53,981 bases of DNA, from IMG/VR virus record IMGVR_UViG_2529292919_000008; one strand, written 5' to 3'. Below are positions 10,562 to 42,129 of the stretch, piece after piece. Source of the DNA: a virus (Duplodnaviria; Heunggongvirae; Uroviricota; Caudoviricetes). The number at the start of each line of letters is the position of its first letter. The stretch's first letter is position 1. The translations under genes and the position numbers were made by a program. Below the pieces are notes generated by a model. The model saw nothing but the letters and a program-made list of their open reading frames with translations. It had not been told where the DNA came from and did no database searches.

Positions 10562-11209
10562 TTATGCTGATTTCTTGTTTACAGGCTTAGTTTCTTGCTC
10601 CGGTGTGACGGGAACGCGATCACCTGGTGTTCCAGCACAGAAAATGGCTTTGGCGCGGCGCAAAATCTCTTTGTCATTTTCCTCATCGCCAGCTAATGCC
10701 ATGCAAACAGCGTCTTTAAGCGATTGCCTGATGTTCAGGCTTTGAATGGCCTTTCTTTGCTCCTCAAGTTCGCTATCGGCTTGCTTAGTTTGCCTGGTGG
10801 GTTGCTGTAGGCGTTCCAAGATTCCTTTAATGCCCATATCGCATATTGCACTTATCAGCTGTTCCTTATCTTCTGTGGACGCTCTTTTCAATAACTCGTT
10901 AACTAGCTCGTTTGTAATATCGGGAGAAGGCTGCGCTGTTTGATTTGATAGAGAACTTTCTTTGGCGATGGGTTCCTCACCGTAAGCGAGCCAATTTAAG
11001 CTCACTTGTTCTTTATCTGATATAAGGCAAGCTATTTTAAAAGAAGGCTCTGTTCCTTTATGAATGTAGTTGTTTAAGGTTGAAGGGGGGATTCCCCAAT
11101 CACTCGCAGCAGTTCTGACACTACGGTTACCTATCAGCTTTACTAAACGCTCTCTGAAACTTTCTTTTTCCCGGTCGACAAAAGAAAAAGCATCATCATT
11201 TCTAGTCAT
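10562..11209 (-). CDS. Putative repressor (Mu c-like position), HTH DNA-binding protein
   Basis: 215 aa, transcribed leftward next to the left end and divergent from ner. HTH-like segment RTAASDWGIPPSTLNNYI...SLNWLAYGE. Confidence 0.5.
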   Translation of the reverse strand: MTRNDDAFSFVDREKESFRERLVKLIGNRSVRTAASDWGIPPSTLNNYIHKGTEPSFKIACLISDKEQVSLNWLAYGEEPIAKESSLSNQTAQPSPDITNELVNELLKRASTEDKEQLISAICDMGIKGILERLQQPTRQTKQADSELEEQRKAIQSLNIRQSLKDAVCMALAGDEENDKEILRRAKAIFCAGTPGDRVPVTPEQETKPVNKKSA

Positions 11210-11391: not shown

Positions 11392-11628
11392 ATGATGGTT
11401 AGAAATGAAGTAATGAACAAAGACTGGCACCGCGAGTACATCGTTGCCGCTGTGCACACCAAAGGTTTTACATTGCGTGAACTTTCTGAACGCGCTGGTC
11501 TAAAAAAAGACTCTTTAAAAAATGCACTGTATCGCTCATGCCCTAAATATGAACGCATCATAGCCGATGCTATTGGTGTGGAACCTGCGGAGATCTGGCC
11601 AAGCCGGTATGCCAGTAAGGCGGCGTAA
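11392..11628 (+). CDS. ner: Ner-like DNA-binding regulator
   Basis: 78 aa. Matches Mu Ner (...IWPSRY... C-terminus). Stop overlaps the A start (TAATG). Confidence 0.8.
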   Translation: MMVRNEVMNKDWHREYIVAAVHTKGFTLRELSERAGLKKDSLKNALYRSCPKYERIIADAIGVEPAEIWPSRYASKAA

Positions 11629-13670
11629 TGTTTTATTCAGCCAATGAGCTGGCCGGTCTTCCTGGTTTGCCCGGTACAGTTCAGGGGGTGCGCTGGACGC
11701 TCAATCGGATCACAGATACGCACCCGGAATGGAAGCGCAAGCGCGAAGGCACCAAAGCATTCGAGTATCACATCGACTGCCTGCCCGCTGAAGCGCAGAA
11801 AGTTTTACGTAAGCGCCTGACCCATCAGGTTCTGGAAGATGCACAACTGCCCGCCGTGGTTGAGCAGAAGGCAGTTAAAAACGTCGCCGTTCGCGATGAA
11901 CTGGAAGTGATGGTCAAATGCCCGGAACTGGCATTACGCGAAGTCCAGGCACTGACCGACAAGCAAAAGGCCATTGCTGATGCGCGGATATTGCTGGCTA
12001 CTGAAGTGCATAAACTGCGTGAATACGCCGGAATGACCAGGAAGGCCGCGTTAAAGCACATCGTTGATGGTGTGCGCATGGGGGCGTTGCCTGACCGCAT
12101 TATCGAAGCAGCGAATACTGCAAATGCACGTCAGGGAAAGCGAACCGGTGTCAGCACCGGCAGCCTGGATAGCTGGTACTCCAGCTGGGTGATGGCGCGC
12201 GGTGATGCCAATCAGTTACTGGCGTTACTGGCTCCCGGTCATCATAAGGGAACACCGTGGGAGCAGGTCTGGTGGTTGAGCGATTTCTTTATGTTCTATC
12301 GCTCATGGAAGCGCCCGACCGTTGAATACGCTTATCGCGAGTTTTCAGCCTGGTGGCATGAGAAACACGCGAATGATGCGGGAATGCTGGCGGCACTGCC
12401 TTCAGTTCACGCAGTAAGACGGGTGTTAAGCAACGTCCCGGTGATTGTTAAGGAGCGTTTCCGCTCCACCGGTTCAGCCTGGCGTTCGCTCAATCCTTTT
12501 GTGCGGCGCGACTGGAGCACATTACCGGTTAATGCGGTATGGGTCGGGGATGGTCACTGTATGAAAATGACTGCGTTTAACCCACTGACCGGCAATATTT
12601 TCCGGCCAGAAGTGACGCTGGTTATGGATGCGGGTCAACGCTTTGTTGTGGGCTGGTCACTATCCCTGTCGGAGAACGTGATAGCCGTTGCTGATGCGTT
12701 ACGTTACGGCATGGCGCAGCACGGGATACCGCTGATTTATTACTCCGATAACGGGGGCGGTGAAAAAAACCGGGTGCTTGATGCCGATATTACCGGGATT
12801 CTGCCCCGGCTGGGTGTGGAACATCACACGGGGATACCAGGTAACCCGCAGGGGCGCGGGGTGATTGAACGGGCAAACAAAGGAATACCCAAAGACGTGG
12901 CTCTGAGTTTCCAGACGTACTGCGCAAGGGATGCAGACAAGGAAACCGTAATGATGCAGCAACGGATTATGCAGTCAGCCATTAAGGCCACCCACAAAGG
13001 GAAAGAACTGACAAAACGGCAGGTTAAGGCGAGGGATGAAATCCCCACCTTTGAGCAACTGCTGGCAGCCATAGAGCTGGAGGTCAGACGCTATAACAAC
13101 CGGCCACACAGCAGCCTACCCCGCAAAGAGGATGGCGAATATTACAGCCCGGCAGCGTATCGCCGGAAACTGATAAAAGAGCAGAATGTTGAAATTGATT
13201 TCCTGTCGCCGGAAGAACTGCATGAAATGTTCAGACCGGAAGTGACGCGCAAAACATTTCGCGGGGAAATTCAGTTATTCAACAATATTTATTACTCATA
13301 TGAGCTGGCCGCAGAGCACGGGAATGAAGTCAGGGTCAGTTACGATATTCATGATGCAAACAGCGTCATTGTCCGGCGGGCTGATGGCTCTTATATCTGC
13401 GATGCCATCTGGAACGGTAACAAGGTTGATGCCTTCGCTAAACCAGTTATCGAACAAAAACTGGAGAAACGCGTCAGGGGCCGCATTGCACGGGCCACGC
13501 AGAAAATCGAAGAGGCTAAACGCGAGCTTACCCCGGCTATTACGCAGAAGCCTGACTTTAATCTGGGATATGGACTGGAACGCCCGGAGAAAAAGGAAAA
13601 AGAAGAACTTTATTTATTCGCATCTGAACGCGAGCGCAATTTAAAGAAAAACGGCACAAACAACCATTAA
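11628..13670 (+). CDS. A: Mu-type DDE transposase A
   Basis: 680 aa directly after ner. Translation carries WVGDGH and GIPGNPQGRGVIER segments that I read as the MuA-type DDE core; no search run. Confidence 0.9.
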   Translation: MFYSANELAGLPGLPGTVQGVRWTLNRITDTHPEWKRKREGTKAFEYHIDCLPAEAQKVLRKRLTHQVLEDAQLPAVVEQKAVKNVAVRDELEVMVKCPELALREVQALTDKQKAIADARILLATEVHKLREYAGMTRKAALKHIVDGVRMGALPDRIIEAANTANARQGKRTGVSTGSLDSWYSSWVMARGDANQLLALLAPGHHKGTPWEQVWWLSDFFMFYRSWKRPTVEYAYREFSAWWHEKHANDAGMLAALPSVHAVRRVLSNVPVIVKERFRSTGSAWRSLNPFVRRDWSTLPVNAVWVGDGHCMKMTAFNPLTGNIFRPEVTLVMDAGQRFVVGWSLSLSENVIAVADALRYGMAQHGIPLIYYSDNGGGEKNRVLDADITGILPRLGVEHHTGIPGNPQGRGVIERANKGIPKDVALSFQTYCARDADKETVMMQQRIMQSAIKATHKGKELTKRQVKARDEIPTFEQLLAAIELEVRRYNNRPHSSLPRKEDGEYYSPAAYRRKLIKEQNVEIDFLSPEELHEMFRPEVTRKTFRGEIQLFNNIYYSYELAAEHGNEVRVSYDIHDANSVIVRRADGSYICDAIWNGNKVDAFAKPVIEQKLEKRVRGRIARATQKIEEAKRELTPAITQKPDFNLGYGLERPEKKEKEELYLFASERERNLKKNGTNNH

Positions 13671-13688: not shown

Positions 13689-14582
13689 ATGAGTTTAATT
13701 ACGCAATTAAATGACGTAATGGCCCGTCGCGGCTATACGCAGACCCACGTCGCCCGTGCTATTGGTCGTAGCAGCGCCGTTATCAGCCAGTATTTGCAGG
13801 GTAAATATCAGGGCGATATGTCTGATATTGAAGAACGCATTTCTGCCTTTGTGACCCGTGAGCGGGAAAAAGAAAACAGCCGCCGTATTAAAGCAAAGTT
13901 TGTGACCACCGGTATGGCTGCCAAAGGACTGGAGGTGCTGGCCTACGCTCACCTGGAATGTGAAATCTGTGTGCTGTATGGCGCAGCAGGTCTTGGCAAA
14001 ACAATGATTCTGCGTGAATACGCCGCCAGAAACCGGGATGCGGTCCTGATTGAAGCCGACCCGGGCTATACAGCCAGAACACTGCTTGAGGAGCTGTGCC
14101 GCCAGCTGGGGGTAAAAGTTCGCGGCAATATCCACGAACTGATTGATGCATGTGTGCGAGAACTGCGTGATTCCGGTCGCCTGCTGATGGTGGACGAGGC
14201 TGAACTGCTCCCCTATCGCGCACTGGAGGTTCTGCGCCGTCTGCATGACAAAGCGGGTATCGGGATTGTCCTGGCGGGTATGCCACGCCTTCTGATTAAC
14301 CTCAAGGGACGTCGCGGTGAGTTCGCCCAGTTATACAGCCGTGTGGCGCTGGCGCTTAACCTGGGCGATACGCTGTCGCAGGAAGATTTTAACCAGATAG
14401 CTACCGGGCTGATGCCGGAAGCAGCAGAACCGGAAATCAGCGAGGCGCTCTACGCACGCTCACTGGGTAATGCCCGCCGCCTGTTCAAACTGGCGCGCGG
14501 TGTGTACCGGATTTGTGATATCAGCGATGCACCGGTCAGTGTGCAGGCCATTGATAAATTCGCAGAAATGTTAATTCACTGA
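13689..14582 (+). CDS. B: Mu B-like AAA+ ATPase (transposition target DNA activator)
   Basis: 297 aa. N-terminal HTH region, Walker A GAAGLGKT and Walker B-like LLMVDEAE. Directly downstream of A. Confidence 0.85.
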   Translation: MSLITQLNDVMARRGYTQTHVARAIGRSSAVISQYLQGKYQGDMSDIEERISAFVTREREKENSRRIKAKFVTTGMAAKGLEVLAYAHLECEICVLYGAAGLGKTMILREYAARNRDAVLIEADPGYTARTLLEELCRQLGVKVRGNIHELIDACVRELRDSGRLLMVDEAELLPYRALEVLRRLHDKAGIGIVLAGMPRLLINLKGRRGEFAQLYSRVALALNLGDTLSQEDFNQIATGLMPEAAEPEISEALYARSLGNARRLFKLARGVYRICDISDAPVSVQAIDKFAEMLIH

Positions 14583-18932: not shown

Positions 18933-19290
18933 TGCGTGTGGCATGTATCGGCTTGTTACCGTATCCGACTCGATTTTGGGCTTCTGCGCTAATTGCAAAG
19001 CCGCATGTCCTGATGGCTGACAGCATCATCCCGGCACCGAAACGCCGTACAGGCATTGCGGCGGCGAGACGAGCAGCAAAGAAACGCAGGAGAACAAAAC
19101 GATGAAAAATCGTAAGGCAAAAATTCTGTTAGCTCGCAGAAACGGTGTTGGGGTCTGGCGATGGTTGAGGATTAGTAACAGACGAGTGAGGTTGACGGGG
19201 TGTTGCGGGGTGATGTTGCACAGCTGTTGCAAAAAGCCCAGCGCGGCGCAAAACCGCAGGAAAAATCACGGTATGTAAAGGAGGTGCCAG

Positions 19291-19695
19291 GTGAAGAAAA
19301 TGGTTTTTGTGGCGGCATTGCTGACCGTTACCCAACAGGCTTCAGCAGTTATTGTGGCATCTGCCGCTGCGACTACGGCTGCCGCAGCTGCTGCGAACTC
19401 TGCGAATATCGCAAGCCAACAGGAGCAGGACGCTGCTAACGCATCAGCCAGTGCTCTCCCGATTTTTGTTAAGGGCAGTAAGCTAAATCTGGGGTTCATA
19501 ACGTGCGGTAAGCGTTCTTATGAAGCTGTAGGCTCACTGGGATGTACGGTATATGGCGACAGTGAGAGCAGAGAAATTCCATGGAAAACGTGGCCCGGAT
19601 ACGTTCTTGGTTCGAAGCTCCCGGCCAGTTATGAGGTAAACGCCGTGTCGTTTGATCACTATAACGGCGTGGCAACTGTCTATTTCACATACTGA
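19291..19695 (+). CDS. Secreted protein with signal peptide and Ala/Thr-rich linker
   Basis: MKKMVFVAALLTVTQQASA signal-like N-terminus, then low-complexity AAATTAAAAAANSANIAS and a Cys-containing C-terminal domain. Confidence 0.45.
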   Translation: MKKMVFVAALLTVTQQASAVIVASAAATTAAAAAANSANIASQQEQDAANASASALPIFVKGSKLNLGFITCGKRSYEAVGSLGCTVYGDSESREIPWKTWPGYVLGSKLPASYEVNAVSFDHYNGVATVYFTY

Positions 19696-19736
19696 GTTCC
19701 GGCATGAAATTTTCTGAATCACGGAGTAACAACCTG

Positions 19737-19922
19737 ATGAAAACTATCACCGTAACGGTTGAAATCGACGTTCCTGATAACGCAACGGACAATGATATTG
19801 CTGATTTTGTCGATGTCGAGTACGGGGAGTGCGGAAAAATGGCACTTGATAACCCATGCCGGACAGATGGAACGGAAATACTCGATGCCAGATGGGAGCA
19901 CGGCCCCGATTACGCGGGTTGA
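19737..19922 (+). CDS. Hypothetical small acidic protein
   Basis: 61 aa from MKTITVTVEIDVPDN. Confidence 0.3.
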   Translation: MKTITVTVEIDVPDNATDNDIADFVDVEYGECGKMALDNPCRTDGTEILDARWEHGPDYAG

Positions 19923-19941
19923 TTGAACAGTAATCAAACGC

Positions 19942-19986
19942 AGACCAAAACATGTGTTTTGGTCTGCCAAAAGTAGTGTTTTGGTC
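19942..19986 (+). promoter_or_regulatory. Operator-like palindrome AGACCAAAAC-N4-GTTTTGGTCT plus extra GTTTTGGTC half-site
   Basis: Perfect 10-bp inverted repeat at 19942-19965 and a third half-site at 19978-19986, ending 3 nt before the ATG at 19990. Confidence 0.45.
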
Positions 19987-19989
19987 ATT

Positions 19990-20268
19990 ATGAAGATTGA
20001 ACAAATCGGAATGGCAGCTTTCAGGCAACAGGCTGAAAGCGGTGGCGTGGATGAGTTCGTCGTGCAGCGGTTCGGTGGTGTGTATCACCTCTTCGCTGTG
20101 AATCGCCGCGCTGGGGTGTCCTATTTTCTACAGGAACGCCGTGGCGATTACAAGACGTGGCTGTCTCTTGATCGTGCCGCCGCGTTCTTGTCAGGGATTG
20201 GCGTTTCACGTTTTACCGTACGTTTTGAGGATAACAAACATGCTGAAAAAGATGATCGGGGCCATTAA
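19990..20268 (+). CDS. Hypothetical protein downstream of operator-like palindrome
   Basis: 92 aa from MKIEQIGMAAFRQQ. 3' end overlaps the gemA start. Confidence 0.35.
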   Translation: MKIEQIGMAAFRQQAESGGVDEFVVQRFGGVYHLFAVNRRAGVSYFLQERRGDYKTWLSLDRAAAFLSGIGVSRFTVRFEDNKHAEKDDRGH

Positions 20269-20638
20269 AGCCGGTCAGGCGTATCTGGGGTGGGATGATG
20301 CCCTTTATCGCCAGACGCTGGCCCGCCTGACCGGTAAAACCAGCACCACACGCTGCAATCTCAATGAACTGCGCATCATCCGGGAATACATGCACGAACA
20401 GGGATTCCCGCGCAAGGCACCCGCCGGTAAAGGTCGCCGCCCCCGTGTTGCAATGAGCAGAAAATCGGTATTATCCAAAATTGAAGCGTTGCTGGCTGAT
20501 GCCGGTCGTTCCTGGGGGTATGCGGAAGGACTGGCATCTCACATGTATAAGCAACATGTGATCGAATGGCTGACGGATGAACAGCTTTTCGGGGTGATGG
20601 TGGCGCTGGTTAAAGATTCAAGAAGGAGGAGTAAATGA
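20240..20638 (+). CDS. gemA: GemA-like regulatory protein (Mu gp16 family, DUF1018)
   Basis: ...AGQAYLGWDDALYRQTLARLTGKTSTTRCNLNELRIIREYMHEQGF... resembles Mu GemA. Located just before Mor, as in Mu. Confidence 0.65.
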   Translation: MLKKMIGAIKAGQAYLGWDDALYRQTLARLTGKTSTTRCNLNELRIIREYMHEQGFPRKAPAGKGRRPRVAMSRKSVLSKIEALLADAGRSWGYAEGLASHMYKQHVIEWLTDEQLFGVMVALVKDSRRRSK

Positions 20639-21145: not shown

Positions 21146-21174
21146 GCCGCCCCTGCCATGTAGGGGCTTTTTTG
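21146..21174 (+). terminator. Rho-independent terminator after the moron
   Basis: GC stem (GCCGCCCCT / AGGGGC) followed by TTTTTTG. Confidence 0.6.
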
Positions 21175-21236
21175 TGGTCTGTACAGGCGATCATGTATGG
21201 CTATAATAACAGTAAGTTACTACCGGAGACGCCATC

Positions 21237-21704
21237 ATGCAGACCTTCAGTGAAACAGATCTTCGCGATGCGCAGGCACTGCTGCCCGATTCCGTGCAGC
21301 AACTGATTAGCGTGATTGGCTTCCCCGCCCTGACCCGGTTAATCCGTTCTTTTGGTGGCGTGACGTTAAGCGGTAAAACCGGCGCACACGCCGAACGCAC
21401 CGGCGGTGTCCATGCCCTGTTACATGATGTGCTGACCGAAGACGAAATCAACAAACTGATCCGCTTTCTTGGCGGTGCGCCGTTTTACATTCCCCGTTGC
21501 GATCATGCGTTACGTGCCCTGCGTAACACCCGTTTTATGGCAGATTTACAGCAGCATGTAAAAGACGGATGCTCACACCGGCAGGCGCTGGCACTACTCT
21601 GTCCCCGTTACGGGATTTCAGACCGGTACGCATGGCAGCTGATACACCGACGACAAAAGCAGACTTCGCTGAAAAGCCCCACCCAGGTGGGGCTTTTTGA
21701 TTAA
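21237..21704 (+). CDS. mor: Mor/C-family transcriptional activator
   Basis: 155 aa with C-terminal HTH-like RQALALLCPRYGISDRYAWQLI. Position after gemA, as for Mu mor. Confidence 0.55.
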   Translation: MQTFSETDLRDAQALLPDSVQQLISVIGFPALTRLIRSFGGVTLSGKTGAHAERTGGVHALLHDVLTEDEINKLIRFLGGAPFYIPRCDHALRALRNTRFMADLQQHVKDGCSHRQALALLCPRYGISDRYAWQLIHRRQKQTSLKSPTQVGLFD

Positions 21705-30050: not shown

Positions 30051-30259
30051 ATGGCGACAAACGCGCTGTAATCGCCTTTGACGACATAAACGCCTCACGG
30101 ATGAGGCATTACAGCACCGCACCCCATAAATGCCGTCAGAATCGTTTTTAAAAGGGTTTTAAAAACGGTTTTATTTTCCCTTTTATCCTTTCCCGTTATG
30201 GCAGGGTGCTGAACACCCTCCACAGTACCCCGTGTTCCCCTTCCGTCATCATACCGCGT

Positions 30260-41495: not shown

Positions 41496-42129
41496 TCAGC
41501 GCGTACAGCAGGCACTGGCCGCCGTTCGCCAGGCATTCAGGGTGGTGACCGGTACGGTGGACAGTTCGACCAAAGTACAGCTGCTTCAGCTTAACGGGCT
41601 GGCAGGCGAACAGCTGGACGGTGCGGAGTATTTTCAGCATTACGGCCTCACCACATCCCCGCCGCCCGGCTCAATGGGTATTGCCGTTCCGCTGAACGGC
41701 AATACCTCTCATACTGTCGTGGTGGCCACAGAGCACGGCGCATATCGTCTGACGGAACTGAAACCCGGGGAAGTGGCCCTGTATACCGATGAAGGCGCGA
41801 AAATCGTACTGAAGCGCGGACGGGTTATTGAAACCGAATGTGACGTTTATCGCGTGAAATGCAAACGCTACGAGGTTGAGGCAGAGGAGAACGCCACATT
41901 CACGACACCGTTACTGACAGCCAGTGACAGGCTGACGGTGGAAGGCAAAATCACCGGCAACGGTGGCATGGCCATCAGTGGGGGCAAGGGATACACTGCC
42001 ACCTTTGAAGGCAATATCAACCATGTGGGTGGAGTGATTACCTCCGTTGACGTCACCATTAATGGCGTTAAAATCGGAACGCACAAACATCCAACCCCAC
42101 ACGGCATGTCTGACACGCCGGTTAATTAA
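41476..42129 (+). CDS. Baseplate assembly protein (Mu gp45 / V-like spike)
   Basis: 217 aa; synteny. Confidence 0.55.
   Translation: MMWDKVNQRVQQALAAVRQAFRVVTGTVDSSTKVQLLQLNGLAGEQLDGAEYFQHYGLTTSPPPGSMGIAVPLNGNTSHTVVVATEHGAYRLTELKPGEVALYTDEGAKIVLKRGRVIETECDVYRVKCKRYEVEAEENATFTTPLLTASDRLTVEGKITGNGGMAISGGKGYTATFEGNINHVGGVITSVDVTINGVKIGTHKHPTPHGMSDTPVN

Follow-up and report, generated by a model that had tools for sequence, protein, structure and literature searches.

Back-to-back palindromes in front of ORF92

The element described here lies in a Mu-like transposable prophage, IMG/VR record IMGVR_UViG_2529292919_000008 (53,981 nt; this whole stretch of DNA is referred to below as the window). 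It is located inside the polycistronic early operon, where it fills the 67-nt gap between the stop codon of a cargo open reading frame (ORF; 19920-19922) and ORF92, a small gene that is followed by gemA. A sequence-only reading of the window had noticed a perfect 10-bp inverted repeat, AGACCAAAAC-ATGT-GTTTTGGTCT, with a third half-site, GTTTTGGTC, 12 nt further on, and had taken the three half-sites for a dedicated operator serving an internal regulated transcription unit. The sequences are indeed present, the repeat at 19942-19965 and the third half-site at 19978-19986, which places the end of the element 3 nt 5' of the ORF92 ATG (19990), but the extent of the symmetry was understated. The perfect inverted repeat is 13+13 nt long, GCAGACCAAAACA-TG-TGTTTTGGTCTGC, with arms at 19940-19952 and 19955-19967 on the plus strand, and the third half-site belongs to a second, imperfect palindrome, so that there are four arms. 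The two palindromes are termed hairpin 1 (H1) and hairpin 2 (H2; Table 1), and the four alternating CCAAAA/TTTTGG arms (a1, AGACCAAAAC; a2, GTTTTGGTCT; a3, GCCAAAAG; a4, GTTTTGGTC) could also pair in another way, a1 with a4 and a2 with a3. The 3' arm of H2 occupies -12 to -6 relative to the ORF92 ATG, the position where a Shine-Dalgarno (SD) sequence would be expected, and its loop and 5' arm reach out to -23.

A chance origin of the element is excluded. The window has 4 perfect inverted repeats of 12 bp or more, where 200 Markov simulations of it give an expectation of 0.03, and the exact 9-mer half-site occurs three times in the 54 kb, every time within the element. A search for further copies of the motif found none in the window beyond the element: 9-mers with one mismatch are at background (20 observed, 14.7 +/- 3.9 expected), and CCAAA-N(2-14)-TTTGG is confined to units 1 and 2 of the tandem duplication. 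The tighter pattern ACCAAA-N8-TTTGGT is found twice, 22 bp apart, both in the window and in the related loci L046 and L047. The element is a real, evolutionarily maintained pair of back-to-back palindromes.

Table 1. Positions of the element, its parts and the main early-operon features in the window
Feature	Position	Strand	Description
CI-type repressor (c repressor)	10562-11209	-	
MuA	11628-13670		rightward early operon; Mu-transpos_C, HTH_Tnp_Mu_1
MuB	13689-14582		rightward early operon
Pre-leader TTGATTGAACAGTAATCAAAC	19923-19939	+	weakly conserved, ~17-30 nt, -10-like TAAT box
Hairpin 1 (H1)	19940-19967	+	12-bp stem, 4-nt loop; ~-19 kcal/mol
Remnant frame DQNMCFGLPKVVFWSL, then stop	19943-19993	+	homologous to last codons of upstream gene of relatives; TGA overlaps ORF92 ATG
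Palindromic unit 1	19945-19964	+	first copy of 22-nt tandem duplication; units 85% identical
Hairpin 2 (H2), CCAAAAGTAGTGTTTTGG	19967-19984	+	CCAAAA-GTAGTG-TTTTGG; imperfect palindrome, 5-6 bp stem
Palindromic unit 2	19967-19986	+	second copy of 22-nt tandem duplication
ORF92 (phrog_7844)	19990-20268	+	small conserved protein of 92 aa, function unknown
gemA (PF06252)	20240-20638	+	start overlaps ORF92 3' end by 29 nt
mor (Mor transcription activator family)	21237-21704	+	last gene of early operon
Intrinsic terminator AAAAGCCCCACC-CA-GGTGGGGCTTTT	21672-21697	+	at mor 3' end

Linkage to ORF92, ancestry and constraint

An 80-nt query found the element in 58 of the 5426 complete E. coli genomes searched, seldom with more than one copy (median of 1 place per genome); one carrier is E. 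coli E2348/69 (NC_011601.1, 2,724,974-2,725,052). The exact palindrome pattern occurs at 13 places in 2.9 million IMG/VR viral contigs, 12 of them immediately upstream of ORF92. The 13th match (L020) was considered as a second context of the element and rejected as a chance match in an unrelated Gly/Pro-rich gene. Dispersed copies of the kind formed by repetitive extragenic palindromic (REP) elements or miniature inverted-repeat transposable elements were not found, there being one locus in the window, and neither the element nor an ORF92 homologue was found in GenBank phage records, Mu included. The ORF92 family is itself narrow, as large protein collections yield 13 clusters of it at 90% identity and 11 at 50%; a profile search of 1.8 billion representatives returned 11 clusters only, and scans with the single protein gave no deeper homologues. 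Rfam covariance models have no match at 19900-20000, even at E <= 1, and the element is undescribed as far as the searched libraries show.

The sequence from AGACC to the ATG is kept in 53 loci (22 haplotypes of the 55-nt element), while the DNA to its left differs in at least four ways: a 61-72-aa ORF can be present, as in the window, or internally deleted, there can be an extra 83-aa ORF, or both ORF134 and ORF72 can be missing. Shared between the contexts is only a loose ~30 nt of pre-leader containing the TAAT box, which is a good -10 hexamer in other contexts but not in the window, and the mosaic (recombination) junction with the variable upstream genes lies just 5' of H1 in all of them. 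Such retention in the face of differing upstream DNA means that the element belongs to the ORF92-gemA block. The part of the sequence-only reading that called it a dedicated, selected cis-element tied to the downstream gene is therefore borne out, as the element is single-copy, is found with ORF92 in every context, and is constrained in its arms and last 6 nt.

The element also has relatives that are coding. In three loci (L006, from Leminorella, L046 and L047) DNA homologous to H1 and to the 5' half of H2 is coding and supplies the final 11-12 residues (..LNQMNTFGEPK, followed by the stop) of an intact, Cys-rich upstream gene of 124-134 aa, whose stop codon lies in loop 2 together with a GGA Shine-Dalgarno, the ORF92 ATG following 13-16 nt on. 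The peptide tail coincides with a hairpin because the codons for F-G and P-K (TTTGG and CCAAA) are mutually complementary. The remnant frame of the window reads ..DQNMCFGLPK.. and is closed upstream, and no homologue of the C-terminal domain of the Cys-rich gene was found in the window. Tail remnants are also present in L004, L008 and L010, each with other upstream genes, and these, together with the window lineage, indicate that the ~45 nt before ORF92 were kept at least four times after the gene was lost. In the E. coli lineage the tail DNA became a perfect palindrome, and a copy of arm 2 took the place of the SD.

Such an ancestry could mean that the element is a functionless recombination scar, left by the 3' end of a lost gene in which the FGxPK codons happen to be self-complementary. 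Slippage or gene conversion would have duplicated and homogenized it, and its place hard against the ORF92 start would be the only reason for its being kept; in addition, it might provide a hot spot or a short homology patch for the exchange of upstream cargo. Homology to the codons with which the upstream gene ends in relatives, and the mosaic junction immediately 5' of H1, are both in keeping with a scar, as are the concerted units and hypervariable loops, which are expected of quasi-palindrome template switching. However, the sequence was retained independently in at least four lineages with a replaced upstream gene (the window, L004, L008 and L010), and in the window lineage the palindrome has been perfected and is not decaying. 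Together with the patterns of variation and pairing that follow, this makes a scar quite unlikely in our view.

Among the 27 near-identical haplotypes used for the variation analysis, 7 of the 10 loop sites vary (mean pi 0.15-0.19), which exceeds the variation at synonymous sites of ORF92 (p = 0.03; 30/93 or 32% of third codon positions vary, mean pi 0.069), whereas only 6 of 34 stem sites do so (Fisher p = 0.003 for stems versus loops). The stems of H1 vary at 6/24 sites (mean pi 0.044) and are not significantly more conserved than the third codon positions (p = 0.12), a point in favor of a scar, but the H2 stems and the 6 nt before the ATG do not vary at all (0/16 sites, mean pi 0.000), in contrast to the 32% at synonymous sites. 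The H2 arms are thus invariant in all haplotypes around a loop that varies at 4/6 sites. In the loops themselves (19952-19955 and 19973-19978), the loop-2 variants and two of the three loop-1 variants differ from the window by transitions only, and loop 1 of E2348/69 carries transversions as well. The loops may be a mutational hot spot arising from hairpin extrusion or from template switching between units, and gene conversion between the units and template-switch mutation of the loops probably contribute to the overall pattern.

The stem of H1 also changes in a compensated manner, which speaks against a functionless scar. A C-G pair is replaced by A-T in E2348/69, with both sides changed, and in L046, which represents a lineage of ~70% identity, arms ACCAAATG/CATTTGGT stand against ACCAAAAC/GTTTTGGT, AC/GT having become TG/CA in two compensated pairs. 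On alignment A5 there are both-sided changes at 5 of the 12 H1 pairs, 89% of cells can pair (28-55% with a slid partner), and the covariation score of 0.132 was reached by 0/500 shuffles, which gave 0.071, and clearly exceeds that of every slid control. The interior single-sided changes (L002 and L031/L053) both give U.G or G.U on the sense strand, wobbles compatible with sense pairing are also seen at the terminal pairs of L025 (loop-closing) and L062 (base pair), and A.C, C.A and C.U mismatches are confined to the base pair and the loop-closing pair. The double substitutions and the interior sense G.U pairs mean that base pairing fits better than protein recognition. Pairing would then be what selection maintains in H1, for which the comparison of sequences is moderate, not decisive, evidence.

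A proposed structured leader and the alternatives to it

We propose, with a probability of roughly 0.45, that the element is a structured leader of the sense-strand mRNA, whose role would be to hide an SD-less ribosome-binding site, to protect or insulate the ORF92-gemA block, or both. The sense RNA of 19915-20020 (106 nt) is predicted to fold into abutting H1 (12 bp) and H2 (5 bp) hairpins at -32.1 kcal/mol (z = -3.5), while the minimum free energy structure of the 62-nt core, at -22.1 kcal/mol, is a1:a4 enclosing a2:a3, with H1 as the centroid at -19.2 kcal/mol (z = -5.3). Arm 4, just 5' of the ATG, is paired in both folds. ORF92 is essentially without a Shine-Dalgarno, the duplex with the anti-SD being worth -2.2 kcal/mol (rank 36 of 40 prophage genes), and its region from -14 to -4 has a mean unpaired probability of 0.29, the fifth lowest of the 40 genes, with the ATG outside both H1 and H2. 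We infer that RNA rather than DNA is the active form and that its specific effect is on translation or stability.

An ATG or GTG at the apex of H1 is annotated in places as the start of ORF92, which gives a protein of 104 aa (e.g., L025 1033-1347 and L027 1033-1347), and in the window and other haplotypes with an ATGT loop the apex ATG is the first codon of a mini-ORF of 13 codons, MCFGLPKVVFWSL, which ends in a TGA overlapping the ORF92 ATG (ATGA). As the start of ORF92 or of a leader peptide this codon was rejected: it is missing in E2348/69, L053 and L058, its reading frame varies among haplotypes, and the 12 'codons' have no third-position variation. The 104-aa annotations are probably wrong.

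The structured leader would function on a long early transcript that starts at the early promoter near 11.2 kb. Arm 1 would pair with arm 2 to give the very stable 12-bp H1, and arm 3 with arm 4 to give the weaker H2 over positions -23 to -6 of ORF92, the SD having been lost in this lineage, and either H2 or the a1:a4 alternative would keep initiation at ORF92 low or conditional, an effect that possibly extends to gemA by way of the 29-nt overlap between the two genes. H1 would be a fixed structural boundary that insulates the initiation region from the upstream cargo genes, and/or, once the transcript has been processed, would be a 5' stem-loop that shields the RNA downstream of it. In the ancestral layout, as it is seen in relatives, ribosomes finishing the upstream gene would melt both hairpins and terminate in loop 2 beside a real SD, which is classical translational coupling, and the leader would descend from such a coupling junction, the window lineage having lost the upstream gene and having kept and sharpened the structure.

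Several observations weigh against a leader of this type. The leaders of relatives with 55-76% identity fold no better than shuffles (z -0.1 to -2.1), that of the most distant relative has z +1.0, and only in the E. coli lineage is the structure strong; at depth it is the ACCAAA/TTTGG sequence that is conserved, in part because it is coding in the distant relatives. Occlusion of the ribosome-binding site is moderate and not extreme. No covariation was found for H2 on alignment A5, its CCA/UGG core being simply invariant, and the compensatory events in H1 are few, in ~3 independent lineages. A palindromic operator that co-evolves with its protein would also yield compensatory changes, the strand signal is weak (four sense wobbles, two interior and two terminal, versus two or three terminal A.C/C.A pairs compatible with the antisense strand), and the concerted units fit two sites of one protein equally as well as they fit alternative RNA pairing or gene conversion.

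These last points lead to the tandem DNA operator, a version of the original proposal in which the ACCAAA-N8-TTTGGT sites would be occupied by two dimers of a regulator, from the phage or the host, sitting on the same face of the helix, and the bound dimers would occlude or roadblock a promoter firing into ORF92-gemA, as a gem-operon-like unit in the early region. The geometry is in accord with it. There are four half-sites with a constant inner spacing of 8 bp in the E. coli lineage and in L046/L047, the two units are 22 bp (two helical turns) apart and evolve in concert within each lineage, and a perfect 26-bp palindrome without a spacer is present in the commonest haplotype (loop ATAT). Moreover, the outer ACCAAA/TTTGGT half-site is conserved in sequence and does not covary. 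The inner pairs argue the other way, since in E2348/69 and L046 they change on both sides and stay complementary with other bases, whereas a spacer need not do so.

Promoter-like sequences bear on the operator in both directions. In the upstream context that we call C (E2348/69 and many others), ATCACA-17-AATAAT (9/12) would start the RNA at the base of the hairpin, placing the palindrome at ~+1 to +26, a lacO-like position, and in context C, L045 and L008 the 9/12 promoter-like sites end 7-10 nt before the element or inside it. In L008 (2915-2971) a terminator-like hairpin is followed by TTAACC-16/18-TATATT/TATTAT overlapping unit 1, an arrangement suggesting that ORF92-gemA may have separate transcription in that phage. 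An internal transcription unit is not far-fetched, yet nothing shows one in this prophage: there is no plus-strand promoter-like site near the element in the window, where the best -35/-10 pair scores 4/12, and neither strand was found to have a sigma-70-like promoter within reach of it. In addition, the -10 is broken in the context-C loci L028 and L051 with the palindrome still kept, and in L006, L046 and L047 the site is within a coding region.

Nor is there an obvious regulator to bind such an operator. The motif has no further copy anywhere in the prophage, with matches in viral contigs nearly all at this same locus, and of the potential binders ORF72, ORF134 and ORF167 have no Pfam family, and no candidate could be named. 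The modeled fold of ORF92 is alpha/beta, without a helix-turn-helix or ribbon-helix-helix, and its only structural neighbors are the rRNA-binding protein eL38 and FtsH periplasmic domains. Sites for a sigma-54 promoter, LexA, CRP, FNR, FadR, Cra and IHF were compared by eye with consensus sequences, and none fits. The claim of an operator and an internal regulated promoter in the window is thus not upheld, and we consider a DNA operator at this locus unlikely in general.

The hairpins might instead be an intrinsic terminator for leftward (minus-strand) transcription, which would keep antisense RNA out of the variable cargo region or provide the 3' end of an antisense RNA over the ORF92 start. 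Terminator scans flag both the window (12 pairs, tail GTTTGATTAC) and E2348/69 (tail TTGGTTATTA), the hairpin is followed by GUUUGAUUAC on the minus strand, and there is a T-rich tail in all upstream contexts. We nonetheless find this highly improbable: there is no minus-strand gene, the 300 nt to the right contain no minus-strand promoter of >=8/12, the hairpin has only a poor U tract, single-sided changes in the stem interior would be A.C mismatches on the minus strand, and unit 2 is left unexplained. A terminator on the plus strand (tail CAAAAGUAG) was rejected because it has no U tract.

The near-isoenergetic folds allow for one further possibility, a two-state RNA switch or translational operator in which a trans-acting factor, which might be ORF92 itself, chooses between H1+H2 and a1:a4 enclosing a2:a3 and sets the level of ORF92-GemA(-Mor); in a DNA version, the element would be part of a new repressor/operator pair for the gem block. 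We regard this as very unlikely. If true, the switch would set the timing of the early-to-middle transition or of gem-type lysogenic conversion, and the DNA version would give expression of the gem block in the prophage state. The probability that is left over by the leader, the operator, the scar and the antisense terminator falls to something else.

Genomic setting, known systems and significance

In the rightward early operon, MuB is followed by DUF3164, DUF2786 and Ead/Ea22-like genes and then by a set of small ORFs; a 167-aa ORF (ORF167) lies between gemA and mor, and holins come after mor. The element is positioned ~1.7 kb before the end of this ~10-kb unit, which is probably closed by the terminator at the mor 3' end as the counterpart of Mu t9.2. 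That terminator is a perfect 12-bp GC-rich palindrome with flanks of A4 and T4, bidirectional in form, and spurious sub-threshold matches to terminator-type small RNAs of Rfam fall on it. Directly after ORF167, at 21149-21207, there is a terminator-like hairpin, GCCCCTGCCATGTAGGGGC, with the T-rich tail TTTTTTGTGG, followed just 5' of mor by the promoter-like TGTACA-16-TATAAT (10/12), a sequence arrangement suggesting that mor may be transcribed from a promoter of its own, or ORF167 may be a self-contained moron. To the left of the element, a small ORF (..AQLLQKAQRGAKPQE) has as its 3' end a 43-nt segment (19227-19269) that matches P1, RCS47, Stx2c-converting phages, Yersinia phage vB_YpM_39 and others with 95-97% identity. 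The same motif stands directly 5' of the palindrome pre-leader in context C prophages (e.g., E2348/69), and because it adjoins the pre-leader there, ORF134 and ORF72 (19291-19922) are an insertion relative to context C. Other long perfect inverted repeats of the window are at 30143-30167, 41677-41706, 50330-50362, 50440-50457 and 9557-9578, and these include an AT-rich repeat of 11 bp (CGTTTTTAAAA GGG TTTTAAAAACG) between genes of the late region, a 13-bp repeat within a tail-region gene, and two with GTTAAC at ~50.3-50.5 kb.

The closest parallels in the same phage family are the com-mom leader and gene C of Mu, where the translation of a gene in a regulatory block is limited by hairpins that lie at its initiation region or just 5' of that region. 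Com is essential for the translation of mom mRNA in Mu (PMC3378877), and a passage of the same paper cites work in which secondary structure at the gene C initiation region was removed. The element differs from both in having no sequence similarity to them, in its locus, in the lack of an identified Com-like zinc-finger activator, and in that the strong hairpin, H1, is upstream of the ribosome-binding site and not over it. Mu has no ORF92, and an unrelated GC-rich hairpin (GGCGGTG TTGCAG CACCGCC) lies immediately 5' of its gemA SD. This Mu hairpin (L064 2694-2713; phage Mu 8193-8212), analogous in position to the element, is within a gap of ~275 nt in which the sole annotation is a doubtful minus-strand ORF (Mup15). 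The literature on the structure of the Mu early transcript yielded nothing useful.

Translational coupling by hairpins that mask a ribosome-binding site, of the type seen between the MS2 coat gene and the replicase or lysis gene and at many operon junctions, resembles the layout of L006, L046 and L047. There the upstream ORF stops in loop 2 with 13-16 nt left to the ATG, the hairpins are built from its final codons, and a terminating ribosome would unmask the next start; in the window lineage, however, that ORF is absent, no translation passes the hairpins, and the SD is gone as well. The control of T4 genes e and soc, early and late, relies on a hairpin that sequesters the ribosome-binding site on a long transcript initiated upstream, and a transcript started internally escapes it. 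The promoter-like site inside unit 1 of L008 recalls this as an analogy only, and the window is unlike it in having no internal promoter. The operators of lacO, lambdoid and P22 type share with the element the dyad half-sites, two sites about two helical turns apart, and a position immediately 5' of a gene, and in context C also the location just downstream of a promoter-like sequence, but the window has no promoter, cognate repressor or other sites, and the inner positions keep complementarity rather than sequence. The ompA 5' hairpin and REP elements are stabilizing stem-loops, 5'-terminal or intercistronic, and the element resembles them as a stable GC-closed stem-loop between cistrons of a long transcript that is linked to the downstream block; it is not a REP-like family because it is single-copy.

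In Mu, entry into middle and late transcription is under the control of the gemA-mor end of the early operon, which has also been linked to lysogenic conversion. The gem operon has been described as uncharacterized at the molecular level (Gabija preprint PMC12407980). The element leaves the current understanding of phage regulation unchanged and is of modest general interest. It does provide a natural example of a coding sequence that outlives its gene by doubling as structure for the next gene, and of hairpin loops that vary faster than synonymous sites, and it is a concrete handle on how expression of the ORF92-gemA block is set apart from the variable cargo upstream.
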